A stretch of 64,000 bases of DNA, taken from Schmidtea polychroa (Eukaryota). Under the pieces are notes generated by a model that saw only the letters and a list, made by a program, of their open reading frames with translations, did no database searches and was not told where the DNA came from. The DNA lies in NCBI GenBank assembly GCA_044892525.1, contig CM097885.1:82894001-82958000 (forward strand), given 5' to 3'. Each line of letters starts with the position of its first letter. Position 1 is the first letter of the stretch. The translations under genes were made by a program, and so were the position numbers. Positions 3,724 through 43,950 of this stretch are shown piece after piece.

Positions 3724-4242
3724 TCATGCTGGGAATGGTTCTGGCTCGCGTAACATTTTGTTGATACGTTTATTTTTATCCCATTTTTTATGATGTTTGA
3801 TTACCTGGTATGCCAGGTTTGACAATTTTATCTTGTGTCGTGCAACGTTTTTCGCGTACGAACCCATAAATATATCCTCTGACATTTCTCTGACTCCCAT
3901 GACGTTGTATAGATCTAATGTGAGAGCTTTGAGTTTCCCGATGATGTCGAATCCGACGACTATTTTACCGCAAAGCAACTGCTGAATCTCTATCAATGCC
4001 TCGTATTCGTCTTTATTTCCGATGATATTTTCTTTATTGGCCTTCGTCTTCTCTGGATAGTAATGTAGTACCTTCGTTCTAAGTGTAATCTTTTCATCGA
4101 ATATCGTTACACCTTTAAAATTCCGTATGCTGACCTCAACTGGTCTTAAGTTATTATTGATATCGCAAACTAGTTTTGCATCTACGAACATCATTAGATG
4201 ATGTCTCTCCGCTGGTGACAGCTCTTGGTGGGTGAACGACAT
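3724..4242 (-). CDS. Degenerate DEDDh 3'-5' exonuclease, REX4/ISG20-like
   Basis: Pattern MFVDAKLV..VEVSIRNFKGVTIFDEKI..KVLHY..EALIEIQQLLCGKIVVGFDI..LKAL aligns by eye with the REX4 family (LDCEMV..RVSIVN..G..LYDEYV..V.DY..LL.GRILVGH.L.ND); catalytic E and D appear substituted. Confidence 0.6.
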   Translation of the reverse strand: MSFTHQELSPAERHHLMMFVDAKLVCDINNNLRPVEVSIRNFKGVTIFDEKITLRTKVLHYYPEKTKANKENIIGNKDEYEALIEIQQLLCGKIVVGFDIIGKLKALTLDLYNVMGVREMSEDIFMGSYAKNVARHKIKLSNLAYQVIKHHKKWDKNKRINKMLREPEPFPA

Positions 4243-4860
4243 TTTTTTCTAATGAAGTCCCCGTGCATATGGATATTGGATTGAATTAGCTCCAGCTGCT
4301 GAAATGGGTTTGGGATAGTTGGTACATATAATATTTCTATTGCTATAACGCAAGGTAGGCTGTTCATTTGGACTATCAATTCGTTGTAATCATTTGGGAC
4401 ACTTCGATCACTTTTTATAGTTTTTATTGTTACGGTACAATTGCTCGTTGTGATTATTGGTATTTTCTGTTGGCGTATTGCTACCTCTGTTTTTGTAGTA
4501 TGGAATAAGATTCGATGGGGCACTTTCCTTCCTGTTCTTGCCGCTTCCTCTGCGTTGGGGAATCTGTCGTACGCTCCAATTAGTTCCCGTAGTCTAACCC
4601 GTCTTGCCTCGTTGAATTTGACAAGGTGTAATCCCCTTTCCTGATTTGGGAAACTGCGTATTGTGATTGGACTTCCATCAATGCATATTTTATTTTGCAA
4701 ATTTTTATAAAAACTGCTATAATGCTTCTGGAGCATACAATAATATTGGACATTTGATTTGGGTCTGAACTGTTTGCTCTGGGAATTGAATTGGTTGGAC
4801 TGCAATTCGCATTTCTTTCTAAATTTAAAATATAAATTGATATGTTCAATGGGCATTTGA
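4194..4860 (-). CDS. Accessory/polyprotein-tail ORF of LTR element, 5' part lost in N gap
   Basis: About 220 open codons; RRVRLRELIGAYDR resembles RRVQLRELVKEWNR in the post-integrase ORF 43951-45531. Confidence 0.5.
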
Positions 4861-5665
4861 NNNNNNNNNNNNNNNNNNNNNNNNNNNNNNNNNNNNNNNN
4901 NNNNNNNNNNNNNNNNNNNNNNNNNNNNNNNNNNNNNNNNNNNNNNNNNNNNNNNNNNNNNNNNNNNNNNNNNNNNNNNNNNNNNNNNNNNNNNNNNNNN
5001 NNNNNTCGACATCGAATTTCACTTCGTCTAGTTTTCTATGACATTAAAAAATTTAATAATGTGATCCAAGTCTGATCCAAATGATTTATTAACTTAGGAT
5101 CGAGCGCACTAATTCAATTTATGTACATGCAATATGCATTTACCCAATGTTATTCCTATGAAAATTGAAAGATTTTAATTGATACCAAGCATGCTATTTT
5201 CATTTATGATATTTAAGTTTATTCAATATACACACTGTTAATTAGTTTAATCACTTGATCCTAAATATAATTATATCTAATTCCATATGTAAATAATTAA
5301 ATGAAATATTAATAAATTTAAAATAAATTATATAGAATCTATATTATAGAAAAGTAGATAAGTATATCTATTATCGATATTAGCATAATTATTTAGATTA
5401 TTTGTCACAAGCAGTTTGTTTAATTAATATTCAAGAGGCAGTGGGTTAAAGAATTTGTAATAAGCAAATAAGTTGTATATTTATTTATTATCTTACACGA
5501 AAATTTGGAAATATTTATCACAGATCACGGATGTCGTTTTAACGCATAGATTTCGCTAGTGTTGGTTACCTGGGGAAGTATAATACTCCTAGGACGAGTT
5601 TTCCTCAAGTATCCACCACGACTTAGCTTTAATCTCCCACATGTGTACCCATGATGATAAGTCAT

Positions 5666-5776
5666 GTTGGTGCTGCGCACATGGGTCGGAACTTACAAAC
5701 AGGTGAGCCCCTACGTTAGGACTACTATTCGTAACATTCGCAGTACGGGTTCTCGAATGACAATAGAAGGACTTAC
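5666..5776. other. Conserved structured LTR motif, copy A
   Basis: CAGGTGAGCCCCTA-N3-TAGGACTACT-variable hairpin-TAGAAGGACTTAC, preceded by GTTGGTGCTGC..GGGTCGGAA; shared with 6123, 24384 and 58950. Confidence 0.75.
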
Positions 5777-6122
5777 ATCTTAATTTACTAAGACCCTGTC
5801 TTTGGTCCAAGGAGACAGTTACGGAAATTCGAAGTTCATTTACTGATTAGAATCTTAAGGGAGAGTCTTTCTCAATATCGGGTTCCCTGAGATTACTTAA
5901 CAACGCAACAAGTGATTACAAAATATCTATTAATTGCTGGGGCACTACTCGGTTGACCACCATTAGTTCAACTTTCGGCCTAGGAGATGAATGCCCATTC
6001 TAATCATGCTCGTCATTACTTTGTCAACCCCGAGCAGAGCCCACACATAACCTATACTCCAACATAGTACCCGTGAATTTCTCCACGTTGGAACTGTACT
6101 ATGCCGGCGAGACGCCAGTAAG

Positions 6123-6200
6123 CAGGTGAGCCCCTACCTTAGGACTACTCCTTACTGAGGCCTCGACTTCCCACTCTTGACGGCCGATAGAAGGACTTAC
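6123..6200. other. Conserved structured LTR motif, copy B
   Basis: Same core as copy A with a different inner hairpin (GGCC-TCGA...TTGA-C-GGCC). Confidence 0.75.
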
Positions 6201-6487
6201 GTCGATTCGAATTATCAATCTACTTCACTACCCTTTAGTTTGAATTGCAAACTGTCTAATACTTCTCGATTCTCAAAAAAAAATCTCCACCCTAGTTACG
6301 AAACTGAATCTCTCACAAAAGAAAATTATATAAAGACATAAAATTATTTATTCCAACATTAAGCATACAGAACACCGATGATTTACATGCAACAGAGATA
6401 TCGGATGAGGGAAAAACAAGGAAGGAAAGACATGATAATTCGGTCCAACAGTTTTACGGAGAATAGAGTCATTTCGCGGGAGCGTTC

Positions 6488-7237
6488 CTATTTCTCCCAC
6501 TCCGTATCCGCCAATAACTCATCTAAATTGAAAAACTCGGAGGCGTTTTCCTCCCAAGTTACTCCGGCGGCGGAGATAATTCGCCCTGAGATTCCTGATG
6601 TCGGATCGATTGCTATCAAGGGGGCGCTGACTTCCTTCAGAAGTTCCGTCGATGGTGTATTCTGTTTGGCGGTTATTCGTTCCCGCTGCTTCCTTTTACG
6701 CTCGGCTCTTGATAATTGCCGACGCTTTGGCTTCGATGTCGTTGGATTAGCTGGAGGTGCTGTGGATGTAGAAGCGATCGCAGGCGGCGCTTTACTCGTT
6801 CCAACGAAAATAACGTCTGGTTGTTTGGGCGAGAGCTGGGTCTCCACGCATTCTTGGCAGGACTTCTTGGAAGGAGACGACGACTTAGAAGAAGTGTCGT
6901 GGTGTGCGGGGAAAAGATTGTCGGCCTCATTGATGGGAATACTGACTATCTTTCGCGTAGTCGCAGCCTGCAGGTATACTTTGTGCAGGGCTTCGGATTG
7001 TTCCTTCGTCAAGCTCCTTTGCGAGCGGCTCTCAGAGATTAGAGCGTCCCGACAATGCTCGCTGCGGTATAGTTTTTTCTGTACCTCTTTCATTTGAGTG
7101 GGGCTAAACCAGGTGCCCTCCAACTCATCTATTTTTCTTTTATATCGCCCAATCTGGGTCTGCAGGTCCTTGATAATTGCATTTTTGTCCGAGCAGGAGA
7201 AGCAGGGAGGTAAAAAGGGCTTGGCAATCGGCATCAT
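6488..7237 (-). CDS. LTR-encoded protein of unknown function (CxxC, coiled coil, basic patch, acidic C-terminus)
   Basis: Intact 249-aa ORF; homologous to 24754-25514 (PCFSCxDKN, EGTWFSP, EHCRD, QSEALHKVY); acceptor-like CTTTATAG just upstream of ATG. Confidence 0.8.
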   Translation of the reverse strand: MMPIAKPFLPPCFSCSDKNAIIKDLQTQIGRYKRKIDELEGTWFSPTQMKEVQKKLYRSEHCRDALISESRSQRSLTKEQSEALHKVYLQAATTRKIVSIPINEADNLFPAHHDTSSKSSSPSKKSCQECVETQLSPKQPDVIFVGTSKAPPAIASTSTAPPANPTTSKPKRRQLSRAERKRKQRERITAKQNTPSTELLKEVSAPLIAIDPTSGISGRIISAAGVTWEENASEFFNLDELLADTEWEK

Positions 7238-9120
7238 GTTGGCTAGCTATAAAGGTGAGATTAAGATATGATATTCGAAATGTCATGCATTTGGTGCCAC
7301 TACTCCGTTACTATCTTGGATATTCCAAACAAACAGAAGAACAGATTAGATGGTAAAGGAATTGCTTTCCCCTCCCCCAGATGTCGACTCGTTTCTACCC
7401 TATACATGATTTACGAAGTTTAACTAATGCTGAACATAGGTGACTTGACGAATGTAAATGAATTAACTGGGAGATTTTGATGCTTTCAATTGAGTGCCTT
7501 TACTAACTCGAAGAATTTGCTACCAAGTCTAGATTTCCTTTTTAGATTTACAACTACGCTATCTCGGCGCTAACTACCTTGACAATTTTTGCACTTGGTG
7601 ATTTGAAGGTTTATAATGTTTAATAATATTAATAATAATGGTCTGATAGTAATAGGACAATAATGTTTTAGCAACAAAAGCGTTATAACATTCAATCTAA
7701 ATTTTGGTGGATTACTATCATCATTGACTTGAAATTTATATGGTTACCTATAATACCCATTGAACGAAATTATGAAGTAAATAAGATGAATCCCAATCGA
7801 AGTATTAAACTAACGAGATTAGTTAAAGTTTTGTTTCAATACAAATGGTTAGATTAGTGAGATGTATTTAAATTAAGCTATACCATATTATAAATTAGCT
7901 GAATATTATCATTAATTTGATGCAAAGAAAAACGATTAAATTAACCAGACGGGTTAGATAAAAATTTGACTCGACTAAAGGCATTAGATATTGGAGTAAT
8001 CAAAATCATCCAACTGGTGTTTTGGATCTAAAGTTCACCGATCCAATCTATCAGGTTTGTTCTCACTTACGTGGAGTTTTACCTGCTCAAGATAACCTAA
8101 AATTGCGAGTGCAGGGAACTTTCAGCAGCTTGATTTTTGCCGATAACAGTCGCTATGCTTGTGGTGTGCACGAACTCACCTGCTAACTAAATCGGGAGTG
8201 TTACGCCTTGGCTACTCGTATGTTGATTAATTTTTCAGGCATCGGTGTGTGTGCTTGTGACAGTTGTGAAGAAGTGCATGAGTTGATATGGGTTAGTGCC
8301 TGGATGTTTACACGATGGAATGAATTTGTAAATCTGATCTCGAGGAAGAGAACTGTATACATATACTTCTGGACTTTTATTTGGAAAAATACGATGAGAC
8401 GACATGAGTGCGATGTACGCTTCTTAGAACGGTGGTAATTACCGATCTCGAAATTTTTGTCTATGGGAAAGTCTGCTTAAAAAATAAAAAGAAATCCGAA
8501 AATTCAGAAATAGAGTTTAACGAGTTATACAATTCATTGGACAGATAGTAATCCCGATCTAGTCATTCGCAAAAGTAATATTAGTAGAATTCATATTCGA
8601 TTATACTTGTTGTTGGAGAGTACATCACTACCGAGGAGTGGAAATTTGATTATTAACATGATAACGTATTCAATTTTTCTCTCTCATACTCAAATCCGAT
8701 TGCTAGTTGCGTTCGTATCTTCGATATACTGGCACATATTTTCACCGTTCTTCCAATCTTCGCATAAATTTTCCAGACATTTAGGGGCATCCTTTATATT
8801 CGTAAATCCTGGGCAATGTCACTGTTGAAACTATTTATGGCATAAAGACATTTCATAAGAATATTCATCTACGTGAAGAGAAAAGAACTTTACTAGAATG
8901 CTATTCAATAATTTTATTTAACTTTGATATACACATAATAGCTTATGAATGAATAAAGTAAAATAAAAAAAATAAAATTTACATTCTTTCTTCCTTTATT
9001 TTCGGTACGACTCAAATAATTTGTTGCTATCGAATAATTAGGCTAGAGTGTTGTTGAGCTGTTCTGTGGCTGTATCTGTTTTTAAATTTGTAAGAATTGA
9101 GGGAATCAACCAAGTGTTTT

Positions 9121-9130
9121 CCTTATATAG
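9121..9130 (-). promoter_or_regulatory. Putative LTR TATA box
   Basis: CTATATAAGG on minus about 520 bp inside the solo LTR start; analogous CTATATAAGC at 38977-38986 in the 3' LTR. Confidence 0.5.
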
Positions 9131-10950
9131 TAAATTTTGTTCAATCAGGACTTAGCTTGTGTGTAAAATGATGTTTTTTCTTGTTTTTTGTGTTTTTAAT
9201 CGTTTTCTAAGTTAATTATTTATTTCTTTTTGCTAATTTATTAAATAATTTAATTTTTTACCTTTCTTCCTATTTTCTGTTAGGTTCTGATGGTCGTTTT
9301 GTTTGTAATTTTTGATTTAATCTTTCTTTGTTTTAATTTATAGTCTTCCTTGCGTGTAATTTATTTCTTTAGTGCTATTTTACTCTTTTTTGAATTTTAT
9401 TTTATTTTTTCCTAATTATTCTTGTCTTGGTTTGTGGATTATTGGTATATGGCCCTGTCTATTTTTATATTGTTTATTATTTGTTTTATTTTCCGTGGCT
9501 TTTGTTTTAATATTTTATTTTTCTTTTAATTTTTGATTTTTCTTACACTTGATTGATTACCACAATACCTTTTATACAGGCTCCCTTTAATTAAGTTAAT
9601 TACAATTTTTAATTTTTCTAAAATTTAATTATTACCGCTTTCAGCCCAACACTAGGTATATGATAGGAAAATCTATTTTCCCACGTTCCAAATATTCCTA
9701 TCGCATAACATCATAACATCCACTAGTAAACCATTGCAAGTGACGTTTGTGGATGGCTTCCAGCAGAAGATTATCTTCATAACTTTATACGGCCCTAGCT
9801 AAATAAACCATAATAATGAGATTATAGCTAACCAAATCAAAGACAAATTTGAGACAAAATTAGCAAAGAATATAAAATTAAATAGTCAACTATTGCTTGA
9901 TCCATAATGCGAGCTTCATTCAACCACCTCATGTGATTTTGTATTGGCTTCCTTCAGGTATTACTAAAACCTGGTATTTTGTAGAGAGTCGGAGTTGAAT
10001 TCATTACCATCGAACTGGTTACGGAAAATAATTAATGGTCTAGGGACGTTGAGGAAGACTGAAGTCCTTTATAAATATGTTTTTTTTAATTTTGAGATTA
10101 GAGTCTGGTGCTGATTCATGACTTTTAGACTCCTCGATTCTACCTATTCTTTCTCCAGCTGTTTTTCATGGAGTTTGTACTATTTTTTCGATTTGTGCAT
10201 TTGGTCTTGGAGGAGCCACGGTGTTTCTAGTGGGTAGCACTTTCGGATAATTGAGTAAACCATCAGTGATTGTTTCAGTGCTTTGATACTTAATTTCACT
10301 ACATCGATGCGGAATTTATCTAAAATTAGTTCTATTGAAATTAAATAAAATGTTTACGAATCAAAATGTTTATAGAGAAGTGATTATCAACAAAGTGTTG
10401 GTATAAATATGAGAGCATTAACGGGGTTAAAAAAATTTTCCAATACAAAAATCTAATTTGTTACGGAGGATAAATAGATGCGAAATAAGTACTAAATTGT
10501 GATAACGTGAAACATAAATTATTATGAGTGCAAAATAATGTAAAGTAATGTTGAGGATACATAAATTGCAAAAAAAAGATCTTCATTAAAGACGTAAAAT
10601 GATGGGGAAAATGATTATGAATGAATGGGATATTCTTCTGGAATTAGGTAAAACAGGAGTGGAAGGGAAATGTTGAGTAATGAGATGGAACAGAGTGGGA
10701 ACAATTGACTTGTTATCTTTATGGCCTACTCGAGATAGAGAGGGGAAAAGGTATGGTAAATCAGAGAAACGGGGTTGTAAAAAAATGGATCTATCTCGAC
10801 AGCTGTCAGAGATTACGGAATACCAATGGGAAAAGCGAGAAAAAAGAAGAAATTATCAATAAGTGCCATCAGATGGAAAAGTATAAAAACCGAACACAAA
10901 TTGACAGATGGTAGAATTATTGAAAAGGAGACAAAAAGAGAACATTTATG

Positions 10951-11897: not shown

Positions 11898-14561
11898 CAG
11901 TGGTGGACAACCCAAATCAATCGAAGGGCCACAATAAATTCATTCAGTATTTTAAGTAAATTTATTCATAATTTTAAGCAAATAGTACAAAGTAAACAGT
12001 ATATAGTATTTAAAAATTTTAATGCGATTGCTGCTTCTCAATTTCCTCAGAGAGTTTGGACAAGTTAATCTCACATTTTGTTGAAGAAATTCTCAACTGA
12101 TCACTAAAATGTTTGTCGGTCAATTTTGTGCGATCTTTGCTCTTGATGCGTTTCATTTTTGAGAATAATGCTTCGCAACGATATGTAGTAGGGAAAACAC
12201 TAATTATCCTCAAGGCAAGAGTATTGAGATTCGGGAAACTTTCAGTTGTAACAAACTTTTTGTAAAACTCAATTTTAGGCATTTCGTTGAACCAATGTTT
12301 CAAGTCTTCACGAGCTTGGAGATCAACCAATTCCGTTTCATACTCAAATGGGGCTTCGTCAGCCTTAACATGAAATGGTGTTAAAAATAAAGCTAATTCT
12401 GTATTAAATTTATCGCATATAGCGAATCTACGTTAGAATTCAAATTTCAGTTCCCGAAGAATATCTGCAAAACGACGAAAATTTTTTGTTTCATTTACAA
12501 CCTCAAAGCTATTTAGTAATGGAAAATACAATGCCATGTTATTGACCAACTTCTTGGTCCATAAATCTAACTTTGCAACGAATGATTGAGTTTTTTGAAA
12601 GCAATCTGTTATGAGCTTTCCTTCTCCTTGCATTTCGACATTAAGGCTGTTGAGTTTTTCAGTGATTTCTACTACGAAACAGATCTAGCAGCCACTGTTC
12701 ATTGTAGAGCTGTTTTACATCATCAGCATTTTCAAGCTTGAATAATCTAATCTCTTCACGGATTTCGTAAAATCGCCTGAGTGTCTTTCCTTGATTTAAC
12801 CAACGAACTTTCGAAAAATAAATCAAATCTCCATATTGGGCCTGAATTTCATTCAAATATTCTTGAAATTGTCTATGTTTCAGTGTGTTATTTTTAATTT
12901 TGTTAACAGTTTCAACTACGACAGTCATCACAGTTTCAATAACAACGATCGGTGCGCACAAATTTTCTAAATGAAGGAAGCAATGAATCGTGAATAGCTT
13001 AGAGACATCAATATCGTTCTTTCTCAAATGCTGAAGTAGTAAAACTACAGCACCAAAGTTTTTTCCGACCATAGCCGGGGCACCGTCAGTTGTCACGCCA
13101 GACAATTTGCAATATGGACATTTACGGTTGGCAAGTGAGGAAACAACAACTTCTACGATATCGACTCTTTTGGTCGTGACTTTTAAGGAATGAAGATCCA
13201 ACAATTCTTCGTAAATATTGAAATATTTATCAATGCCTCTGATAAAGATTCCTAGTTGTGCTGTGTCACTCCAGTCAGTGCTTTCATCGAAAGATATGGA
13301 ATAAAACGAAAAGTTTTGAATCAAATTATTGAGAGTAGTGCTTAATTTATCGGAAATCAATTCTACTCTTCGTGTCACTGTTTGTCTGGATAAACTCAAC
13401 TGTTTAATCAGTTTGACTTTATCAGGAAATAATTCTTCGGCGACAGAAATCATACAATCCTTGACAAATTCACCATCAGAAAATGGTCTCATATTTCTTC
13501 CAATAATATGCGAGACCTTAAAGCTGGCTCTGACAATGCTGTTTGCCTCATCAACTGGTTTTTTGAAGATCATTTGCTGTGCTTGTAAATTTTTTTTCAG
13601 AGCTACTAACTTTTCTTTGCGTTTCTCACCAATAATTTTAGCAAATGAATCATGTCGTGAAGTATAGTGGCGGTTTAAATTTTAAATGCTGTTATAAAAT
13701 TTAAAAATCTTTCAAGACACTCACAGTTTCGCGACAAATCAAACACAAAGCCGAGTCTCTATTTTCGATGAAAAGATACTTTTCTTCCCATTTCTCTTGA
13801 AATTTTCGGTTTGGGGACACATATTTTCTTTTATTGGATCCTTCTTCAGATGTCATCTAAAATAATATTTTATAATTTAATATAATATTTAAAACTAGCA
13901 AAATGTTTTAAAAGTCCTCAAAAGTTTTGTGTTTAAAAATGACCTTTGCGAAGGAGGGAATATAAATAAACTTTAAACTAAAAACCAAACTCTTAAAGCA
14001 ACAAATATGGCTTTTTTTATTTTTTTATTTTTTGAAAAAAACATCAGTAATCAGCTATAAATATATTTAAATTATGAATATGACATTCTCATTGTTTTTA
14101 AAGTAAGTAAAATTGCATATAATTTTATTGATTGAAAAATTGCGCGATTAATGTATAGGAGAGATTTAACAACAAAAGTTAGTTTCATATTGTTGTTTCA
14201 TCTCACCTATTGTAGTGTGTAATTGCAGATTACATAAAGAAATCACTATTAATTTATTTGAAAAATTACTTTTTTTAACGGATTTTATAACACCGTCGAT
14301 CCCGTATATCCCGTCATTCGTGCATGAAAAATTCGATATTGAGCATGACTTGATATTATCTGATGTAAAATATTTTTAATTGGCCATTTAAATAAATATA
14401 ACTCGTTTTTACGATTCAAGTAAACTTAGAATCAATTTTTTAAATTAAAAACATGCTTAATTCGAATATGAATTCTAAAAAAGACAATTATTGATTTGAT
14501 GTTTAAAATTGTGTCCGGGCCACATCAAAACGCTTCGCGGGCCACCGTTTGGCCATGGCTG
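11898..14561 (-). mobile_element. hAT DNA transposon (Charlie/SPIN-like), full length
   Basis: 8-bp TSD CACTAAGC (11890-11897, 14562-14569); imperfect 15-bp TIRs CAGTGGTGGACAACC / CAGCCATGGCCAAAC; transposase inside. Confidence 0.93.
12019..13856 (-). pseudogene. hAT transposase (GTF2IRD2/ZBED-like), frameshifted
   Basis: Fragments with BED-like CLICRETV, SISFDESTD, TTDGAPAMVG, IHCFLHLE, VRWL and C-terminal hATC dimerisation STYxCE-like PTTYRCEALFSKMK; broken into at least 4 ORF pieces. Confidence 0.92.
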
Positions 14562-16401: not shown

Positions 16402-19400
16402 GGTGGGTCGAATGTTAATAAATTTTGAGTTCAAGAAAGGAAACATGGTTAAAAAGTTGTATTTTGGTATAGAAAAATCGAATCAAACCATTTTACTTAG
16501 ATTTATGGACATTTACTGCTCCCAACTTTTCTCCGAAAATGCAGTTCAACATAAGTGTGAAAACAATGTAATTTGGCTAGTGCCGGAATGTGTTTTGCGC
16601 CTTTGTCCATATTTAGATGTAGCTTTCTTAAGAGCTTATAAGTATATTATTTACTCTCTTGGGCTGAGATAGTATATTCTGTGTCCTCATCCCGCATTGA
16701 AATATATCCTGACAACGTCAGTGATTAGGAAGGGCCAAATTTGAATTATCCTTTTCAAAGACAAAAATCAACTTTCGAAATTATTTTTTATTAAAAACAT
16801 CCAGCCAAAAGTTTAGAAATGTATTAGCAAGGGCATAAAAAGAAGTCACATGAAATCAGCTTTGCTTTGCACCTTGGGCAATTCCTTCCTTGATTTTTTA
16901 CACAGTAGTACCATACCATGTCTGGACTTGTGACCAAACACTTTGCAACTGGCAGAAGAAACATCTTTGATGGCTCTTTCAACGGCTTGAGAATGACAGG
17001 GAAATTGTTCTAATGTAATTTTCTTATTCATCTTCAATTCATGATCCAATATATGAGATAAAAGAGGGGGAGGCGTCAAATTACATTTTGTCCAGTCAAT
17101 CATGTCAACATATGATGTAGCAGACGACTGAAGACAGTATTCTTGTCCATAGTGCGAATCACTTCGGAAGGGAGAAAATTTTGTCTTGCAGTTATGATTT
17201 TTTCTGTTGCAAACTTTCTGATTTCTTCATCATCATCACCAACAGCAGCTAGGAGTATATTTTCTGGATGTGAGAAGTAATTGTTGTTCTGAATGACAGG
17301 AAAGATGATTTCTTGGTCTGATGGATCCAAATCCTGCAGAAGTTGGAGCATATAAAAAATATTTCTTGCACCATCTTGGCATGACGAGTGAGACTTTATA
17401 TAAAACCATGACGGTCCATAGAAATTGACAATAAATTTCACTATTCGCATGAGAGGTTCAGATGGAGCAGTTTCGGATATATATAGTCGCAGAATTCTAT
17501 TAGCTTTCGTTAGCCAGCGACTGTGATTCAAATTTCCTGGTTGAACCATTTGTAGAAAAGGGACATCCTTGTTGTTGTGGTACCCATTCTGGACTGCCAA
17601 GCATACTCTGAGGAAATACAATTGATCAGTGTTCAATTCTTTCTTGACATTTTCACTAATATCTACGACCTTTCCAGGAAGGGACATAAAGGCTACTACG
17701 GGCTTGTCTTTTGGATCAAAATCAAGAACGCTTCCTATTTCACCACATGACGTTTTTGGACCTTTTGTTTCTCCACCATCGACGACTGAGAAATACTTCC
17801 TGAATGGCAATTCATTTGCATGCAACAAGCATATCAGCCATTGTAGAGGTCGCCCTAGGCTTTTTTCGAGTCTTCTGATTATTCCATTATTTTTTCCGGT
17901 GTTTGTATTGGTTCCATCGCACACAATTGCTTGAAGGGTCAGTGAGGACTGCGTGCTAACGATGATTGACATGATTTCTTTGCCAATATCCACAGCTTTA
18001 CTACTTTGAGGTACAACATGATCGATATATGTATCCCCTGGAAAGGCGACAATCACATAATGCTCCTCTTTTAGGATCCTTCTATGAAGTAAGGTGGAAT
18101 CTTGTTTCCCGTCGAAACCGAGGCAAATCAAGTTTTTCGCTTCTGCTGAATGCTGTTCAATTTCTCTCTCCCTCCAGTACTTTCTCTGACGCCGTAATTT
18201 TGCGGGATCGATGATTGTTTGAGAGGATAACAGTTCCATATCTTTCAGAAAAGCGTTTACTAGCAAACACGTCTCTCTGTTGCTCACACCACATCTGTCA
18301 ACAGCTTTACTTAATTCAGGATAATGTCTTCTATTTTGAAATTCATCACATTCTTCTACGCTTGACTCTGAGCTTTCTGTTGAATTGTCTAACTTATCTT
18401 TACTTTCATCACTAGCGGCTTCACTCTCCGTGTCACTTCTTGAGGTCGGATGTAGATCGTTAACTTCAGTGTCCATTATTTCATTTTTCATTTGTTTTCC
18501 TTTTTCTGTAGGGCTGCTTTTCGTTTGTTTTCTCTTCAATTTTGAGGTTTCCTGTCTGTCCGTATTTCTGATTTTCATGTTTCTGGTAGTTTGTTGGTCA
18601 ATCCAGAACTCCCACTCTAAGGTAGGAATTTTCAAGGTCAATCGGCATGTACACTGACTTCTTCCACGAGCACCATCATTAAAACATTTGCAGCAACATA
18701 TGTCAAACAATTTGGAAAACGAGCTTAACTTATCTTGAAATTTGGCAGATGACCTCTTGCATTCTGGATACTTCTCTAATTCACGCACTTTTGATATTAG
18801 TCGCTTGACACGAACCACAATACTACTGAACTCAACAGTTGGGATACTTGCCTTCATATAAATTTCCTTCACCTTATTTTCGAGAAGAGTTGCTTGTTCG
18901 TTAAAGCCAGTATGAAATTGCGTACATTTCTCATTGTAACAGTAATCACGAAACACATCTTCACAAGTAGGTAATTGGTTTCTGGGTAGTTCACAAGTTT
19001 GACCAAACAGACAATGACGTGATTTACTTCTTGTTTTGCGAAATTGCTTATTTCTCTGTCCCTTCATAACTGCTCTTCTGTACTCAGCTCTGGCAAAATA
19101 AAAGTGAATCATCAAGTTAACTTTTTTAATTAGGTCCAGCAAACACTTGACATCCAATCGAAACAAATTAAATTATTTGAGTTTAGACTGACTAGTAGTA
19201 TCCATGTGGATTATGTGTTGACTGTAGTGTGTGTGTTAGTATTGTTCAGAAGAAATTGTCTTTGTGAGTGCTTGTGTGAAGGTGCTTCCGTGAATTAACC
19301 TCTCTATACATGCACGCGTTAGCTTGGACTTGTGAATAGAGCATGTCAAAAATGGTCTTTCTGCAAGCGTGTGACTGCTTGCAGGATGAATTTACAATGG

Positions 19401-22744: not shown

Positions 22745-23485
22745 AGTAGATGGATTGGGCACCGCTTGCACAGTACCCCCCCCCCCCCCCCGCCGGGGAA
22801 ATTTTTTTCAAGGTCAAATTTTAAACAAAGACATATTCTCTCAAATATATTAACCTATTTTGTATAAGGATTTATCATCATTTATTATATAGTTCATTTG
22901 GATTCAATAACAAATGATGATAAATCCTTATAGATGTAACAATTAGTTTTCTATATAGAAAAAGACTAAAACTTTAATGTTATTATTTAACAGGTCGACT
23001 ATACCCAAATTATTGCCAATCGTCAATTGGCCATAGCGATGAATGCCATCGTACTATGAAGAAATATTATAGAAAAACGTTCAATTCCATCAACTTTTTT
23101 ATATGTCCCAAATGCGTAACTAGCGAAAAAATAAAATATAAGGCATTTTTTAACAAACATCGAAATCACTTAGGGCAATTTTCGATACCAAAAAATGATT
23201 TATTTAAAAAAATAAATAAAAAAATAAATAAAAAAAATTTACAAAAAAATATTATTAAAAAAGACGATATTAAAAAAGATATTAAAAAGATATAAAAAAT
23301 ATTAAAAAAAATATTATAAAAGATTCTATTAAAACAGATTATATTATCAAACATTCTATTAAAAATATTATTAAAAAAGGATCATTAATATTGACAAAGT
23401 TATTATCATTTTCCCGAGACCATTTTCAAGGTCATTTGACTATTTTATTATTTTTAAAAATATTATTTTTTTCAAGGTCATATTT
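22745..23485 (+). repeat. Terminal fragment of a TTCAAGGTCA-containing repeat family (possibly Polinton/Maverick TIR)
   Basis: AGTAG..GATTGGG..poly-C..AAATTTTTTTCAAGGTCA and TTTTCCCGAGACCATTTTCAAGGTCAT are shared with 60609-61450; superfamily assignment is a guess. Confidence 0.4.
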
Positions 23486-24349
23486 TAAAACCTTAATCTG
23501 AACAGTCAATAAAGTATCGTTCAAATCTAAATATTCGGTTTGCGAACCATTAATATAAAACTCGATATCATTTCTACTATCGGTAATTGAATTCATAGGA
23601 AAAACTTCCTCAAATGCCCCAAATTCTATTACAAATCATTTTGCAAATATAGTTCCATGTCCTTTCATTCGTTTGTTTATACGTGATATTCCATGTCTTT
23701 TACGTTTTGGAGCATGAGCTGGAGCTGGAGCTGGAGGTTTTTCTTTTTGAAACATACCTGCAACCCCGGGTAAAACTTTCCCTAATTCTGCTAAAGCATT
23801 TGATTTTAGAGATGGTAATATTTTCTGTTCATTCCTTCTGTAATATATAAATTATCTTTAAAAGTGTATGCATGCTCAGTTATTTCAAAGTATGATAGCT
23901 TAAATTTGAATTCCACTAAATTATTAGTTTTTGGATGTGTAGAGAGATTTATTTTGACTGTATCATTAAATACATTACGTAAATCAGTAAATCCAATACG
24001 TTTAGCATCAGCCATTGTAGAAAATAAAATTTCGAATGGCTTATTCAAGCAATTCATGTATAAATATTGACCATCATCATAAATTATAGGTTTACTTGAT
24101 TTCGATGACTATCTTTATCAATAAGAACACTAATATATTCCGTTACTGATACTTTCTCATTATATTCAATAACGGATTTGCTATAGATTGGGAATAAATT
24201 GTATACAAATTGTTGGGTGTACGTGGGGGAAATGGATAACTATTACTAATATGCACACAAACTCTCATCATTCCGCTCAGACGCTTCCCTCGTACACGCC
24301 CCATGATCATGCAAATATTCCCACGTATGAGCCCGTAGTGATGTTCTAC

Positions 24350-24458
24350 GTTGGTGCTGCCCACACGGGTCGGAAGAAGCTAGCAGGTGAGCCTCTATCT
24401 TAAGACTACTCCTAACCCCCTCTCAGTACAGGTTCTATGGTGCCTTAGAAGGACTTAC
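24350..24458. other. Conserved structured LTR motif, copy C
   Basis: CAGGTGAGCCTCTATCTTAAGACTACT...TAGAAGGACTTAC. Confidence 0.75.
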
Positions 24459-24753
24459 CCGTTCCTACATTTGCAATCGGCCCGACCCTGGTCCAAGAGG
24501 ACGGCCTTCATTCAAGGATGCTGTTCCAGTTTAACAATTCAATTATGCATTTCACTCATCATTCTCATCATTCAATCAACAAATAAAGAAAAATAAAATT
24601 TGTATTACATTCAAAAATTATCGAGACCGAAAAATCGTACACCAACATGCAATAAACTATTGATTACATAATACCGACGAATTGTTAGATACAGAGATAT
24701 TAGTTAAAGGTCTTTTCGAAATGAGAGATGGATCCCATCGTCGGGTCGGAATT

Positions 24754-25514
24754 TCAGAACGCATCTCCATCGGCGAATACTTCGTCTATGTCTACTGGCA
24801 ACCTGCGATCCACCAGATACTTAATGCCCTCGGCTGGAACCACTTTGAATATCTCCTTGGCCGGAATTACGTGGGTGGCTGAGATATCCTTAATTGTGGA
24901 CTGGGCCATGGATAAAGAAGCTTCTAGCGCCGCCATGGCGTTCCTGCGCTTCTGATTTTTCTCCGAGCGTGTTAATCTATTGCGTTTCCGACGTGGCTTG
25001 ATAGTATCTACTGGAACCTGTGACATAGGTTGAGGTACTAGAATCGGGGCCAAGATAGGGTCCGATGAGCCTCCTGCCATGGGTCTGTAGCCCGAGAGAA
25101 TTGGAGCGGGAATTAGTGGCAGATGCGGCCCATGCCCCTTACAACCAGTTGTGGTTGACTGTGCCGATTGGTGGTGGATCGGGAACACGTTAGTCCCGTC
25201 TTGCACTGGATACTCGCGAACTCGTTTCGCTATTTCTGATTCCGAGTAAACTTTATGGAGTGCCTCTGATTGGGCTTTTATGGTTAGCCTCTGGCACCGA
25301 CTTTCTTCTAGGAGACTGTCTCGGCAGTGCTCCAGGGCAATATTTTGCTCTTTTCCTCTTTCATTTGTGGCGGGGAGAACCACGTGCCTTCATAATGATT
25401 GATTCTTTTCTTTAGTGCCCCGATGTAGAGGTGAAGCTGCGCGATGTCAGCATTTTTGTCCGCGCAGGAAAAACAAGGACGAAGAGTTTTCTCGGTATTG
25501 ATTGGGGTAGTCAT
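24754..25514 (-). pseudogene. LTR-encoded protein homologous to 6488-7237, frameshifted near 25380
   Basis: Two overlapping ORFs (68 aa and 209 aa) together align with the 249-aa ORF; TTTAG acceptor-like site immediately before ATG. Confidence 0.8.
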
Positions 25515-26615
25515 CTAAAGATTAAAGATATTTACGTTTGCTTTTAGTATTTCGTTGATCGACGATCGTATTTTTGCGGCGCGAGTTTTATCACCTACAT
25601 CCTTCATAAACTGAACTTAAAGGAAAAATTATCTCACACATACATTCAACATTCGTCCTTAAACTCATTTATGCCCCAAACATCCACGATAATTCGCACA
25701 AATCTCTGTAACTTATTTAAAAGAAAATGAGAATAACCATGTTAATTTGCTCGTCTAAATCAATCTCATCTCAAATTCGGGGTGTCGATTATGGTTAAAT
25801 ATATCGTTGCTATTCACAATGTTAATATAGTGTCATTAATCGGGTTTGTGATGTTACTTAATTACATTTTTCTTTGCACTGTTAATTTTATTAAATTGTC
25901 TATTTATTTTTAATATATTATTATTTTCAAATCTCCGCTGGACTCGTTGTCATAACGACGCAACCTAAGGTGTTTTTGTATGGAAATATCTCTATCCGTG
26001 TGTATTGTGAAATACCGTTTGCAAGTAAAATGTCTCTGCACGAAAAGTACTGCCTGCTCATTTGTTTCTACATACCGTTCTACCAGCTCAGGCGAAGCCT
26101 ATACTATTATGCAATCTATCACGTCATACAAGAACTTTGCCGTTTATACTACTGTAGTCTTCTAGAGCGAATTTCTCTACAGCCTGTGAGTGTATGTACT
26201 CTTATGGCATTATCTACTAGAGTTGTTATGAGTAAAGGCCTTACGTATGTGTGTGTGATTCGGAGGGTTGTGAACGAGCTAAAGCTAATCATCTAATCTC
26301 TATGGTGTTGTAAATTCACGATAGCAGCTGTCAACACACTCAATGGATGAATCTTAAAAATTTTTCTATGCAAGTAAACATATTCAAAAACTTATTACCC
26401 GCCGTTACCCAGTGCTTAGCAGAACTACTGCTATATATCATTCATAGCACTGGGCAGAAATTGACCGTGACGCTGAGAAAATAATTGTATTTTTCAATTC
26501 AGGTAGGACGAAAAGCGGAGATGATCTCGCACAATGCTGGAACCGGATTCGGACGCGGCTACGACAGAGATATTCGAACACGGCGCTTTATGTAGAGCAA
26601 ACACTGAAGGGAAAA

Positions 26616-29600
26616 ATGAAGAGAGCGGCCGATATGGACCAGAGAGCGATTACGCTGCTCACAAGAGTCCGAGATAACAAATACAGGAATAATACAAACG
26701 ATAAAAATAATGAAAAAGAGAACTTTAATAATATTAATAATATTTATTCTAAGGATCAAAATAAATGGAGAAATGAAGCTGCTTTGAGACGGCAGATAAC
26801 GATGGAACACCGTGACACGACTACTCCACCTCATGACCTGGACTATGGACATGGACCTGGCAGGCAGATGGCTGCAGCGCACCGAATAACGACTCCACCA
26901 TCCTGTGATCTTGATTGCCAGGATGTATCCGGCAGAGGCTTTGTGGACGGGAGAGATGCTGGAGGAGTAATGAATGGGTACGATAATTATGATTACTCTA
27001 ATAAAAATAAATCAATAATATATAATTCGAATCAAACAAATATGAGAGGAAAAAATAATGACTATTACCCGCATGACAGCCATATAAAGAAATCAGCCTA
27101 TGGCTTTGCTTCACCTAATATGCCTGCTGAAAGTAACTCTCCCTCTAAATGCTTTGATAATGAAAGACAAAATACTTCTTACGTGAATGGCCGTCCGTTA
27201 AATGAAAAGGCATACTATCTTGACACTCCTGATCTGCCTAACAGTGATGAAACTATGCGAATTAATGAACTTAATGCGAAAATAATTGATAAAATAAACA
27301 ATAATAACCAAACCTATGCCAACAATTACCTTCTTCCACATCCTTCTTCTGCCCAATATGATGAAAGAAGTGCTCCAATAAAAATAAATCCACCTTCCTA
27401 TAAAGAGAAATTAATAAACAGAATAAATAAAAATAATGCCCATGAAGATCGAATTAATGAAGACTATATTAGAAAATACAGTCTCCATAATGATACGAAA
27501 TACTATGATTATAATAAAGAATGTAATACTCATATTGACAATAGTAAAAAATACTATTGTCCTGACGAATATAGTTACTTTTGCGAAAATCGCTCTGCCA
27601 AAAATGGCGAAAATAAATTTAAATTAATTAATAATGATAATAATAATATATTTAAACAACATATTTATAATAATGATATAAGTAATAGTGAATATAATAA
27701 TAATAAAAAGCATAATTTAAATAATGAAAATGATAAATCCAATAACTCTAAAAATCCAAAAAACAAATATAATAATAAATTTATAATTAATAATACATTG
27801 AACTATAATTTAAATCAAATTGAAAATGAATTCTATAATTTTAAATTAAAATTAGATAATAGTCTAATTAATTTTAAATACAAAATCGGAAATTTGTTTA
27901 AATTACCTAAACAATTTCCTTTTTTGAAAAATAATGATTTCCAAAATTTTTCTTGCCCTTCGGGCAAGAAAAATAAGCCCCTACGCAGCTCATCGGCCTG
28001 CGGCCGATTCGCCGGCTCCCGGACCAACAACGACGACGACGAAACCACAAAAAACGACCTTACTATCGACTTAACCGCAGAACCTCTACCCAACAATAAC
28101 ATCAATGACCAACACGCTGAAATACCAAATACGAAAATATCCAATAATACCTTTCGCCGAGAAATAAAAACACTCTCGAAACATTTTTGGACGATGTTCC
28201 ACAAAGACCCCACCTACATAAATATTCTTAAAGATTATAATAACGAGCTAAATAACTACAATGAAGACGACCAACCAATACCACTGACCAATAACACTAC
28301 AATGAACGTACCCACACTACCCATCACTAACAATAATGACACTACATTATCCAAAACACAAGCCAACAAAAATGACAAATACGAAACCACACCTAGTCTC
28401 ACCAATAACAGATTTCACGCCTTAGCCACCATAAATAATGACCCTAAGGTAAACAGTATAACAGACGCAAACCCACCAGCACCGTCTAACTACAACATTC
28501 CTACATCCACCACTAACAGTACCACTAATGTCCCACAACCTCATTCCATTTCCCCCCCTACCAAACCCATAGAAACTCAATCTTCCCCAATCAAAGCTAA
28601 TCAATCAAACACAATACAATCAACAACTAAACCACCCACTTACATTACTCCATTAAATACATGCAATAACAATATCGAAACCACAATACACTCGTCCCCA
28701 AATAAGGATACAAATATCACCCACAATAAAAGGGATAAACATCTCATACAAGAAATCCACAGAATAATCAACTGTAACAATCAAGAAATCTCCAAAAAAC
28801 ATGAAACAACCACAAAAAACCTGCAACAATACATAATACAACAACAACACGAACAAGCTAATACACACGAAACATTAGCGCTCCTAATCTCACAGATGAC
28901 AAAATTGCAACAACAACTACTCACACATAATACAGCAGCATCCTCCCAACTCCCTCACGACATTGATGATGTACACTTAACTCTCACGCCCAAGGATGAT
29001 GACCTAAACATACCTCCACAATTCCATCAACCTGAACCCTCAGACAATGAATCAAATGATTCCCAATCGGAAGATGACAATGACGGATACATCACAGAAA
29101 TAGAACGACAAATCCATGTGAATAACAAAGTCGACATTGATGAGACCCCAACCCAACAAACACCATCACAATATGAACAAATCAACAACACCCAACAAGA
29201 ACAAACAACACAAAGAACAACATCTTCCAGCGGCTCCCTTTTTTCACCAATGGAAAACATAACTCCAGTTGACCTCAACGACCCCTTTAACATGTATCAT
29301 GCACTAGATGTCCTCCACATAAAAGACTTTGCAATCATTAAAGACATAATGAAAACGCCACCAGCACCAGATACACAAACCTCAGAATCATCCACCAATA
29401 CACCCAATCCACTATATAACCTGCTCAACACCAACGAACAACCAGTAACCCAAAACCTCACCACGATTGACTCCCCATTCACGCTCAAAAAACAAGCACT
29501 ATTTAAACTAGGTAGTGAAGGCTACCTAAAATGTAGGATGAAAAATTGCAAACATGGCAAAATTGGCCCTCTGATGGAAGACAAGCAACATGAACACATG

Positions 29601-30095
29601 AAAAGCATGCATGACCGAATTATAAAAGACACAGACACATTCGAATGCCTAATATGCCAAAGACAGAGGAAAAAAGGACAGAACCAAACCAAATTCCTTC
29701 TCACAAATATTGAAGAACACTGGCTTGATTATCACCCTGAAAAACAAATCCCTGGTACTAGAGAACAATATAATGACAAAAGGCGAATCCTCACACTAGA
29801 GCTAAACGAAGAGGGAACACTACTATGCACATACATATGTAAGAAAAACCCCTGTGATATACATATGACTGTGAAGACCACCGCCAATGACATACTCAAA
29901 CACATTTCTACAAAACACAAAAGTAAAGTATTTGACCAGACCACAAACGTCAAATGCCACTGTGGTGAAACAATAAACTTTGATAATATGAAACAACACC
30001 ACCACTCACACATGGGAATACTTGAACCCACTGAAATAAACAATGAACCCCCCACAAACATCCCAGTAACCACCAAAGACATAGACTCCGACTGA
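26616..30095 (+). CDS. Non-LTR element N-terminal ORF: Asn/Thr-rich low complexity plus four C2H2-like zinc fingers
   Basis: 1159 aa; CRMKNC..HMKSMH, CLIC..HWLDYH, CKKNPC..HISTKH, CHC..HHHSH; ends at a single TGA in frame with the next ORF. Confidence 0.85.
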   Translation: MKRAADMDQRAITLLTRVRDNKYRNNTNDKNNEKENFNNINNIYSKDQNKWRNEAALRRQITMEHRDTTTPPHDLDYGHGPGRQMAAAHRITTPPSCDLDCQDVSGRGFVDGRDAGGVMNGYDNYDYSNKNKSIIYNSNQTNMRGKNNDYYPHDSHIKKSAYGFASPNMPAESNSPSKCFDNERQNTSYVNGRPLNEKAYYLDTPDLPNSDETMRINELNAKIIDKINNNNQTYANNYLLPHPSSAQYDERSAPIKINPPSYKEKLINRINKNNAHEDRINEDYIRKYSLHNDTKYYDYNKECNTHIDNSKKYYCPDEYSYFCENRSAKNGENKFKLINNDNNNIFKQHIYNNDISNSEYNNNKKHNLNNENDKSNNSKNPKNKYNNKFIINNTLNYNLNQIENEFYNFKLKLDNSLINFKYKIGNLFKLPKQFPFLKNNDFQNFSCPSGKKNKPLRSSSACGRFAGSRTNNDDDETTKNDLTIDLTAEPLPNNNINDQHAEIPNTKISNNTFRREIKTLSKHFWTMFHKDPTYINILKDYNNELNNYNEDDQPIPLTNNTTMNVPTLPITNNNDTTLSKTQANKNDKYETTPSLTNNRFHALATINNDPKVNSITDANPPAPSNYNIPTSTTNSTTNVPQPHSISPPTKPIETQSSPIKANQSNTIQSTTKPPTYITPLNTCNNNIETTIHSSPNKDTNITHNKRDKHLIQEIHRIINCNNQEISKKHETTTKNLQQYIIQQQHEQANTHETLALLISQMTKLQQQLLTHNTAASSQLPHDIDDVHLTLTPKDDDLNIPPQFHQPEPSDNESNDSQSEDDNDGYITEIERQIHVNNKVDIDETPTQQTPSQYEQINNTQQEQTTQRTTSSSGSLFSPMENITPVDLNDPFNMYHALDVLHIKDFAIIKDIMKTPPAPDTQTSESSTNTPNPLYNLLNTNEQPVTQNLTTIDSPFTLKKQALFKLGSEGYLKCRMKNCKHGKIGPLMEDKQHEHMKSMHDRIIKDTDTFECLICQRQRKKGQNQTKFLLTNIEEHWLDYHPEKQIPGTREQYNDKRRILTLELNEEGTLLCTYICKKNPCDIHMTVKTTANDILKHISTKHKSKVFDQTTNVKCHCGETINFDNMKQHHHSHMGILEPTEINNEPPTNIPVTTKDIDSD

Positions 30096-30122
30096 CTAAA
30101 CCAGCACCAGATCTCCGCATAC

Positions 30123-36260: not shown

Positions 36261-37093
36261 TTATACTTATATATTTATCTTTTTGTAGCCAAAGCATCTC
36301 TTATTTATTTGTCTTCTATGGTTATTATATATCACCCCTATACAATTTTCTTTGTCTCTTGGTGAACCAGTCTTGAAAACCAGATATTGATATATAATAT
36401 GTACTCAGAGCATTATCCTAATCTATTTGTGTACTATGGCTATTATCTATATTATTTACTATTATTAATCAACTATATAAATATCTAAACTCTCTAATTC
36501 AACCAACTCTCTCTAAACTGACTTAATGACCATAATACCTAATGTTGTAATACTATTATCCTTAATGTATTTAATATAATATTATTTCTGTTATTGCNNN
36601 NNNNNNNNNNNNNNNNNNNNNNNNNNNNNNNNNNNNNNNNNNNNNNNNNNNNNNNNNNNNNNNNNNNNNNNNNNNNNNNNNNNNNNNNNNNNNNNNNNNN
36701 NNNNNNNNNNNNNNNNNNNNNNNNNNNNNNNNNNNNNNNNNNNNNNNNNNNNNNNNNNNNNNNNNNATTAATAATGTACTGCGGGTGCCAATCACCGAAT
36801 GGGTTAATCTAGGAATCCTTGTAGGGGTTCTGCCTATTTGGTGGTCTTTTTAGTAGTTCTTATCAATACTATAATGATCTTTATTATACTATCACTACTA
36901 TAATCATTAACATTACGAACTAATAATAATATCCATACTTATCCCAACCTTCACCAACTCCTTCCAATATATACTATAATAAGTAATATAATATGCGATA
37001 TATAAACCTTCAAGGGAGCCTTCCTGCCCCGACATTTATTTATTTCAGATATTATCATGTACGATCCGGTATCCCTCTCAAATGGCGGACCTT

Positions 37094-40283: not shown

Positions 40284-40311
40284 TTATTTACATCAATTAT
40301 CCCTTTTTAAT

Positions 40312-42520: not shown

Positions 42521-42558
<38 letters not shown>

Positions 42559-43944: not shown

Positions 43945-43950
43945 GCATCT

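Follow-up and report, generated by a model that had tools for sequence, protein, structure and literature searches.

Solo LTRs are usually regarded as promoter or enhancer debris. Here, we describe one that carries a gene, in a window of 64,000 nucleotides of Schmidtea polychroa (assembly GCA_044892525.1, contig CM097885.1, positions 82,894,001 to 82,958,000 of the forward strand); all coordinates below are counted from the first letter of this window.

The closest described systems resemble the locus in different ways. (i) Burro/GYPSM1, as portrayed in the accessible part of its account (PMC6431247), is similar to a second element of the window, hereafter the sister element, which has a gag with CCHC knuckles, a mononegavirus-type fusion protein between gag and protease, ankyrins, and multi-kilobase LTRs. 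The ubiquitin-like and Bcl-2-like matches of the sister element add a weak likeness (E = 0.006 and 0.018, both below cut-off, the Bcl-2 piece without a PDB match). Burro encodes a single polyprotein of ~5000 aa; the sister copy here lies in several frames. The BIR and dUTPase-like domains of Burro were not detected in the sister element, in which a RING was found; and no gene or RNA element inside the LTR is named in that part of PMC6431247. (ii) The sag gene of MMTV overlaps U3 and encodes a type II membrane superantigen in an LTR of ~1.3 kb (PMC9147501, in part). Like the gene described here, it is a protein gene in a long LTR, present in every LTR copy, and expressed from a spliced RNA, a status that at our locus is read from motifs. 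In contrast to sag, the ORF here follows the TATA box, and its intron, acceptor, and poly(A) signal all fall within a 4.1-kb LTR; we saw no membrane anchor (no hydrophobic stretch by inspection), no Pfam match, and no sequence link. (iii) Rev/RRE, Rex/RexRE, and Rem/RmRE, in the accessible sections of PMC12789967, combine a small oligomeric protein with an Arg-rich motif (here a predicted dimer), a spliced RNA (here by motifs), and a structured element in or near the LTR that is kept in unspliced RNA. The present protein differs in having no homology to them, a predicted parallel coiled coil, and no clear export signal; its putative target would sit at the 5′ end of a read-through RNA, with the gene inside the LTR of a Gypsy element of an invertebrate host. 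(iv) U1-mediated poly(A) suppression in HIV-1 and foamy virus LTRs, as far as the accessible parts of PMC3694450 and PMC12789967 describe it, also involves a conserved donor near the LTR poly(A) signal, but the donor here is in U5 and so is present alike in 5′, 3′, and solo LTRs. A literature search found no description of a gene inside Burro or Gypsy LTRs, nor of a Rev-like Gypsy protein; Grohme 2018 and its supplements may already contain LTR ORFs or transcripts.

Solo LTR and sister element

The interval 5560–9651 is almost certainly a solo LTR of 4092 bp on the minus strand. As laid out in the preliminary description, TGTTGG starts at 5560, CCAACA ends at 9651, and CTAG flanks both; the ends are thus TG..CA with a short inverted repeat, and the 4-bp duplication falls within the 4–6 bp range of Gypsy elements (flank match p ~0.007, given the local composition). 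The LTR is homologous to that of a gag-pol element in the window, which belongs to a distant sister family and not to the same family.

5556–5559, no strand: target-site duplication CTAG, left copy
5560–9651, minus strand: solo LTR, U3 end at 9651 and U5 end at 5560, orientation taken from the PBS side of the sister element
9652–9655, no strand: target-site duplication CTAG, right copy, pairing with 5556–5559
24211–39383, minus strand: 3′ LTR of the sister Burro-like element, broken by non-LTR insertions and assembly gaps, with a U5 module within
24754–25514, minus strand: homologous ORF in the LTR of the sister family, split over two frames (change at ~25341 to 25332; tblastn E = 2e-30)
39384–58776, minus strand: sister internal region in several frames, with RING ORF, gag with zinc knuckles, fusion-protein-like env, PR, RT, RH, integrase, ankyrins, and further ORFs
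58754–58772, minus strand: PBS-like TGG motif of the sister element, adjoining the 5′ LTR piece
58777–59487, minus strand: U5-side 711 bp of the sister 5′ LTR, identical to 24211–24921, truncated by a non-LTR fragment

Ends, TATA box, acceptor, ORF, poly(A) signal, and U5 module are collinear in the two LTR families, and the intron between no longer aligns. Within the sister element, the fusion-protein-like env (PF24664, E = 7e-52) lies between gag (PF03732) and protease (PF00077). In the ~150 nt flanking the solo LTR, the best matches to a PBS or PPT reached only 8/19 and 11/19, and the ORF list holds no retroelement ORF next to it. We tentatively read the solo LTR as that of a Burro-like giant Gypsy element, with the accessory gene as part of the family design. 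The internal region belonging to the solo LTR's own family is absent from the window.

Coding and selection

6488–7237, minus strand: 249-aa ORF, with helices at residues 15–40 and 46–98 (predicted parallel dimer), a low-complexity linker, a basic helix at 177–192, and an acidic-hydrophobic tail

Comparison of the two LTR families shows purifying selection on the 249-aa ORF: over the 102 codons compared, differences distribute as 35/30/61 by codon position, with pS = 0.73 and pN = 0.32 (Fisher p = 1.4e-9). It runs from 7237 to 6488 and is intact, as had been described, without an internal stop, and no ATG ORF of at least 249 aa arose in 500 shuffles of the local 1 kb. We consider it very probably a functional element gene and, because of the selection between families together with 15 distant relatives, an old accessory gene of the element, not the chance survivor of one copy. 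The word "retains" in the preliminary description suggests that the ORF is kept up after insertion; this is not borne out, since the selection measured lies between element families, during replication, and the ORF of the sister copy is frameshifted. Being downstream of the TATA box, the ORF falls in R or U5; R would span ~2.8 kb if the far poly(A) site ends it, as opposed to 15–250 nt in retroviruses. A 239-aa ORF on the opposite, plus strand was discarded as a real gene, the plus frames of the sister carrying 17, 7, and 9 stops.

Promoter-like, splice, and poly(A) signals

9130–9651, minus strand: A-rich, putative U3-like segment upstream of the TATA box (61% over 385 columns against the first 400 nt of the sister LTR, partly compositional)
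9119–9146, minus strand: TATA-like box (TACTATATAAG), with a counterpart at the matching position 38975–39002; score reached by 6 of 100 shuffles, so modest
8995–9000, minus strand: promoter-proximal AATAAA with U-rich tract (T fraction 0.65), a possible short-R poly(A) site, not clearly conserved
8869–8890, minus strand: second strong splice acceptor, missed in the preliminary description
8174–8182, minus strand: best consensus donor CAG/GTGAGT (GT at 8179), without a clear counterpart in the sister LTR
8056–8270, minus strand: non-coding block similar to sister LTR 26061–26274 (score 38, 0 of 100 shuffles, maximum 35.5), likely a 5′ untranslated exon, ending at donors 8082/8070
7247–7269, minus strand: branch-point-like motif and acceptor (AG at 7248–7247), 10 nt before the ATG; the sister LTR has the same motif, with AG directly before the ATG
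6347–6352, minus strand: AATAAA, 136 nt past the stop and followed by a U/GU-rich tract; sister AATACA at 24606 in the same setting

The TATA box, donor, acceptor, and AATAAA noticed earlier around the ORF were all found in place, with unequal weight. TATATAA at 9129–9123 arises by chance in 181 of 500 shuffles, and AATAAA in 70 of 500; both signals are weak alone and count only via their counterparts at the same positions of the sister LTR. Taken singly, the TATA and acceptor alignments with the sister are not clearly above shuffles (6/100 and 22/100). A full MAG/GTRAGT donor appeared in 7 of 500 shuffles of 7250–9100, and the acceptor at 7247 is one of only two on the sense strand to pass the pyrimidine filter. 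On these motifs, splicing through 7247 is probable.

The locus had been called a complete cassette, and this holds insofar as promoter-like and poly(A)-like signals flank the gene and an acceptor lies just before the ATG, all inside the LTR, so that each LTR-LTR recombination leaves the whole unit. The simple two-exon model that went with it, joining 8179 to 7247, is not supported: 20 ATGs and three AATAAA lie between the TATA box and 8179, the second acceptor at 8869 intervenes, and the donor aligned with the sister is 8082/8070 instead of 8179. None of the six donor-acceptor pairs examined has an in-frame upstream ATG. For transcription from solo copies, we hold the chances to be even. Among 12 listed sequencing runs, none of them listed as containing this sequence in RNA, four share ~80% of its words; all four come from one study, possibly the source.

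These signals bear on a reading to which we give somewhat less than an even chance, and which is compatible with any protein function: that only in the 5′ LTR of a full element is the gene at work, with a short R ending near 8980 and the gene in a very long U5, or with solo copies silenced. Solo copies would then be silent relics, intact only through youth. Of eight candidates, the AATAAA at 9000 has the most U-rich downstream tract, as this reading would have it, and the sister ORF is already broken despite the identity of its two LTRs over 711 bp. Yet 5′ and solo LTRs should not differ in sequence before the U5 end is reached, and internal signals could therefore not distinguish them.

U5 module

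6116–6200, minus strand: U5 module copy 1, GTAAGT donor at 6200, then stem-loop 6157–6116
5693–5776, minus strand: U5 module copy 2, GTAAGT donor at 5776, then stem-loop 5734–5693

As read from the sequence, the region near the U5 end shows a new feature: a conserved splice donor with, downstream of it, an RNA stem-loop that covaries. The sister 3′ LTR also carries the module (donor at 24458), and in both families the donor lies ~150 nt past the poly(A) signal; in the sister element, acceptors usable by it precede the RING ORF and the gag leader. All 21 of the 21 variable cells in seven outer columns are paired, against 7–13 for slid partners, a count drawn from three distinct copies only and from a structure derived from the same sequences; the inner stem shows one both-sided change. 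Stability is confined to the stem-loop (sense z = −3.5, −2.4, and −1.7; antisense −0.9 to +1.1), the whole 140-nt motif not being unusually stable (z = −0.2 to −1.5). A comparison of 3.9 kb of the element with Rfam gave no match with E of 1 or less, and the window holds no module copies beyond the four known. Neither the donor with its stem-loop nor the family context figured in the preliminary description. Masking of the 8179 donor by the 3′ arm of the stem-loop was set aside: for neither copy does the region offer a better duplex (−34.5 and −28.8 kcal/mol), but the arm contains the complement of a donor consensus, which makes the test circular, and it is not counted.

Predicted protein

The protein is predicted to be a parallel coiled-coil dimer with an Arg-rich helix and an acidic tail. 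The modeled homodimer scored 0.49, against 0.00 for the best of three controls; the mark set for this score is reached by 21 of 30 solved homodimers and 0 of 23 single chains (17/29 and 0/30 for eukaryotes). Contacts agree by at least 66% across runs and pLDDT is at least 69. The Arg-rich motif spans residues 170–190, and a basic run (regex) recurs in 8 of the 15 relatives; that of P0003 matched Pfam REV with E = 0.0013, below cut-off. The tail has eight acidic residues in 24 and a hydrophobic motif common to relatives. No leucine-rich export signal was clear by eye, the only motif of the kind being the short acidic-hydrophobic one in the tail, which would be equally suited to an activation domain.

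Searches gave no family in Pfam, no fold match in the viral and PDB libraries of Foldseek at E = 0.001 (with a model of pTM 0.29), none of 470 candidates in a single-protein search at near lengths, and no relative in viral contigs. The PDB sequence search returned only furin/kexin matches, from the host part of P0003, and the atlas comparison gave leads only, all below 0.9 (delta antigen 0.77, hypothetical proteins up to 0.85).

Possible functions of the LTR gene

The element may regulate its own RNA via the LTR gene and the hairpin, by analogy with Rev and Rex. In general terms, the LTR promoter would yield a short RNA, spliced and terminating at the poly(A) site near 6330, whose product would be a basic protein that dimerizes and binds nucleic acid. 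In the read-through RNA from the 5′ LTR, the stem-loop would lie just inside the intron starting at the U5 donor, so only RNA unspliced there would keep it. Our guess is that, in the manner of Rev and Rex, the protein binds the stem-loop and promotes read-through, intron retention, or the export of genomic RNA; such control would be needed because the LTR can be copied whole only from genomic RNA in which its own intron is retained. On this view, a solo LTR would supply the regulator by itself and in trans, for as long as neither mutation nor silencing removed it.

We put forward this explanation as a whole, an LTR accessory gene with Rev/Rex-like regulation, as tentative and somewhat short of even; the step from protein to stem-loop is doubtful. 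The only tie between the two is that both sit in the LTR. The 20 ATGs of the leader and its good poly(A) signal at 9000, where transcripts could end early, speak against the short transcript, and the Pfam, PDB sequence, and Foldseek searches gave no sequence or fold link to Rev, Rex, or Tat. The Rev fold is a helical hairpin, unlike a parallel coiled coil.

Were the protein to act on the U5 stem-loop, a system resembling Rev/Rex would exist beyond Retroviridae, and the nuclear exit of a very long retroelement RNA rich in introns would have an explanation. It is unlikely, though conceivable, that giant Gypsy elements of flatworms evolved, independently of vertebrate retroviruses, a complete Rev/RRE-type switch inside the LTR: the spliced gene for the regulator would occupy an R of several kilobases, its RNA target would lie in U5, and each solo LTR would be a free-standing trans regulator gene that drives or titrates full-length copies. 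LTR-LTR recombination here removes gag, env, and pol but spares a selected gene together with its splice and poly(A) signals; inactivation by the usual route thus multiplies one gene of the element.

The same gene could instead encode a Tat-, Tax-, or Tas-like transcriptional trans-activator, which we regard as an unlikely alternative worth weighing: the coiled coil would dimerize, the basic helix bind LTR DNA or nascent RNA, and the acidic tail activate, leaving the stem-loop for packaging, dimerization, or another role. The predicted parallel dimer, the basic helix, and the tail with its shared hydrophobic motif would all suit such a factor. In bZIP proteins the basic region adjoins the coiled coil, whereas here the basic helix comes ~80 disordered residues past it; Arg runs are typical of RNA binders, and the lack of a fold match also tells against an activator.

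Improbable, too, is a protein that counters host silencing or serves particle assembly or RNA packaging, binding RNA with the stem-loop not its target. Burro-type elements have many accessory domains (PMC6431247) and are PIWI targets (PMC8532177), so far as the accessible parts of these sources go, and placement in the LTR would double the dose of the gene and let it outlive the element; against this, Pfam, PDB sequence, Foldseek, and atlas comparisons found no similarity to a known suppressor or capsid part.

Lastly, it is very improbable that the interval is no LTR at all but a captured host gene, a non-autonomous DNA transposon whose inverted ends measure 10 bp (CTAGTGTTGG), or a setting for the plus-strand 239-aa ORF as the real gene. 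CTAG is palindromic, so ends plus flanks form a 10-bp inverted repeat, and that ORF does lie on the opposite strand. Against this, the interval matches, at both ends and in four inner parts, the LTR of a gag-env-pol element that is flanked by something other than CTAG; none of the 15 relatives is stand-alone and host-like; and the plus frames of the sister carry the stops given above. This reading is already largely refuted.

Relatives and host gene models

Of the 15 distant relatives, 14 match back by blastp. From eight initial matches, P0008 was removed, being a repeat protein whose match covers residues 2–44 only. Fourteen of the 15 are fused to an unrelated Pfam domain, a different one each, which fits gene models that absorbed dispersed copies; in P0003, P0007, and P0010, the fusion joint falls at the same point, four residues before the Met. 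The relatives are thus apparently mis-annotated element copies, of putative LTR origin, and LTR ORFs of this kind appear to corrupt host gene models.

A Second Element in the Window and the Identity of the Solo LTR

Besides the solo LTR, the window carries another minus-strand element. It encodes a RING ORF, a zinc-knuckle gag, an env resembling a fusion protein, protease, RT, RNase H, integrase, and ankyrins, and its env lies between gag and pol, as described for planarian Burro elements (PMC6431247). This order points to a triclad flatworm as the probable host. The features used below are:

24211 and 58777, minus strand: starts of the sister LTRs (TGTTGG), the two being identical over 711 bp
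39383, minus strand: end of the sister 3' LTR, ending GCCCAACA
6200 and 5776 (solo LTR), 24458 and 59024 (sister LTRs), minus strand: GTAAGT donors of the U5 module

A PBS-like motif, which we take to match tRNA-Pro, adjoins 58777 and thereby fixes the orientation of the sister element. Collinear between the solo element and the sister LTR are both ends, the A-rich first 400–500 nt, the surroundings of the TATA box, a 200-nt stretch that ends in donors, the acceptor, the ORF with its 3' untranslated region, and the U5 motif. Their introns do not align (47 of 100 shuffles scored as well). Judged by sequence, 5560–9651 is an LTR, and the two LTRs represent distant families, not copies of each other. 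The flanks of the solo LTR are devoid of PBS- or PPT-like sequence, and its 4-bp target-site duplication has p ~0.007.

Before the sister 3' LTR, 39384–39402 is a GC-rich, partly palindromic motif instead of a plain polypurine tract. Between integrase and this LTR, five more ORFs (39603–45492, minus strand; 513, 264, 345, 233, and 226 aa) include one with ankyrins, two that look coiled-coil, and some with hydrophobic stretches; most lack a Pfam family.

A Gene inside the LTR

An ATG ORF of 249 aa or longer arose in 0 of 500 shuffles and is thus far beyond chance. The sister ORF aligns to it across two reading frames, at 58% over 48 aa and at 28% over 199 columns. Across 102 gap-free codons, differences number 35, 30, and 61 at the three positions, most at the third, with pS 0.73 and pN 0.32 (Fisher p 1.4e-9); dN/dS is ~0.14, a rough figure because synonymous sites are near saturation. 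As read from the codons, this selection worked during replication of the element and is silent on upkeep after insertion; the sister copy is already broken. A 239-aa ORF on the opposite strand was rejected as a gene, its frame not being kept in the sister.

A protein search of 1.84 billion representatives returned eight matches, seven of them real, and two further searches added eight relatives, bringing the set to 15. All are unnamed MetaClust records; 14 also contain an unrelated Pfam domain, no two the same, and 14 recovered the solo protein in the reverse search. We read them as gene predictions that swallowed dispersed copies. In three, the fusion point falls at the same place, four residues ahead of the family's Met, consistent with an acceptor close before the start codon; an AG lies 10 nt ahead of the ATG in the solo copy and immediately ahead of it in the sister. 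The 249-aa ORF is a real gene of the element.

The preliminary description had presented the solo LTR as a self-contained cassette retaining an intact, apparently spliced gene. Its motifs were all found in place and the observation stands, but the interpretation is only partly supported. In this AT-rich DNA, a TATA box occurred by chance in 181 of 500 shuffles and AATAAA in 70. The donor at 8179 scores best on its strand (matched in 7 of 500 shuffles), but the donor that aligns with the sister LTR is 8082/8070. There are 20 ATGs in the leader up to 8179, another strong acceptor is present at 8869, and the AATAAA at 9000 is also followed by a U-rich tract. A transcript of the gene would likely consist of more than two exons or start internally.

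The only position-matched TATA box lies upstream of the ORF, which places the ORF in R or U5. MMTV sag, by contrast, is a gene inside the LTR that overlaps U3 (PMC9147501). If R ends at 6330, it would span ~2.8 kb; retroviral R is given as 15–250 nt (PMC12789967).

A Donor and Stem-Loop in U5

Overlooked in the preliminary description, a GTAAGT donor lies ~150 nt past the poly(A) signal in both LTR families, followed by a stem-loop that folds on the sense strand only and has no Rfam match. The inner stem-loop shows almost no variation beyond one change that affects both sides. In the outer stem, seven columns, six of them variable, give 21 cells over three distinct copies, and all 21 are paired, against 7–13 cells in a slid-partner control; as covariation this is thin evidence, with three copies and a structure drawn from those same copies, but the sequences vary widely. 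Acceptors precede the RING ORF and the gag leader of the sister element, which makes the U5 donor plausible as the major donor; the stem-loop would then sit just inside that donor's intron.

On the plus strand, the invariant core (5703, 6126, 24387, 58953) reads CAG/GTGAGC, a strong donor. Antisense spliced RNA may arise from it; the fold instead favours the minus strand. The 3' arm (6105–6140, 5683–5718) is able to base-pair with the sequence around the 8179 donor (8165–8195), forming the best duplex in 6350–9100 for both stem-loop copies. The arm could mask this donor in read-through RNA, although the duplex test is circular.

The Protein and Its Possible Role

AlphaFold2 predicts helices at residues 15–40, 46–98, and 177–192, the remainder being disordered (pTM 0.29); searches matched it to neither a fold nor a family. 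Two copies of residues 9–115 were modelled as a parallel dimer whose axis runs through the invariant GTW motif (score 0.49 versus 0.00 for the best of three controls; contact agreement at least 66%; pLDDT at least 69). Of 30 solved homodimers, 21 reached the mark used, as did 0 of 23 single chains; in eukaryotes the figures were 17 of 29 and 0 of 30, but only 1 of 7 for those lacking an older solved relative. The model supports, rather than shows, dimerisation. Residues 170–190 are basic, 8 of 15 relatives have arginine runs (by regex), and one has a sub-threshold Pfam REV match. Eight of the C-terminal 24 residues are acidic, and a PVDID-like tail motif recurs in the sister ORF and 4 of 15 relatives.

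Since reverse transcription rebuilds the LTR, genomic RNA would, under standard strand transfer and wherever R ends, have to read through the poly(A) signal of the LTR and retain the LTR intron at the 5' end. In HIV-1 and foamy viruses, U1 bound at a nearby donor suppresses 5' polyadenylation (PMC3694450, PMC12789967), and in complex retroviruses Arg-rich proteins with structured elements carry unspliced RNA out (PMC12789967). The simplest joint reading, advanced tentatively, is that a short spliced LTR RNA encodes a dimeric RNA-binding regulator whose target would be the U5 stem-loop, alike in role to Rev/Rex and not a member of that family. A transcriptional activator would suit the protein about as well and is a doubtful candidate; an anti-silencing or assembly factor, which the protein fits about equally, seems rather improbable.

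Burro elements have been described before and are silenced by PIWI (PMC8532177); passages in PMC11410931 and PMC13238120 mention them only by name. Our literature search found no LTR-internal gene or RNA element for Burro/Gypsy, which Grohme 2018 and its supplements may show.

Neighbouring Elements

Pieces of non-LTR retrotransposons, with Ulp1-type protease, RT, and zinc finger, lie within both sister LTRs at 26431–33480, 34162–36600, and 59484–60178. Presumably NeSL-like, they occupy different places in opposite directions, are 85% alike over 698 bp, and may reflect target preference; a TAA at 30093–30095 divides ORFs of 1159 and 1096 aa. Transposase-like ORFs occur at 12659–13573 and 17100–19112 (minus strand): one of 304 aa, weakly matching DUF4371 and presumably hAT-like, and one of 670 aa with no Pfam match. 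Two ORFs without Pfam matches adjoin an assembly gap at 3724–5012 (minus strand), the 172-aa one resembling a DEDD-type exonuclease by eye. A 214-bp tandem repeat occupies 60727–61450 (units TCAAGGTCA), with a related stretch at 23381–23492, left of the sister element.
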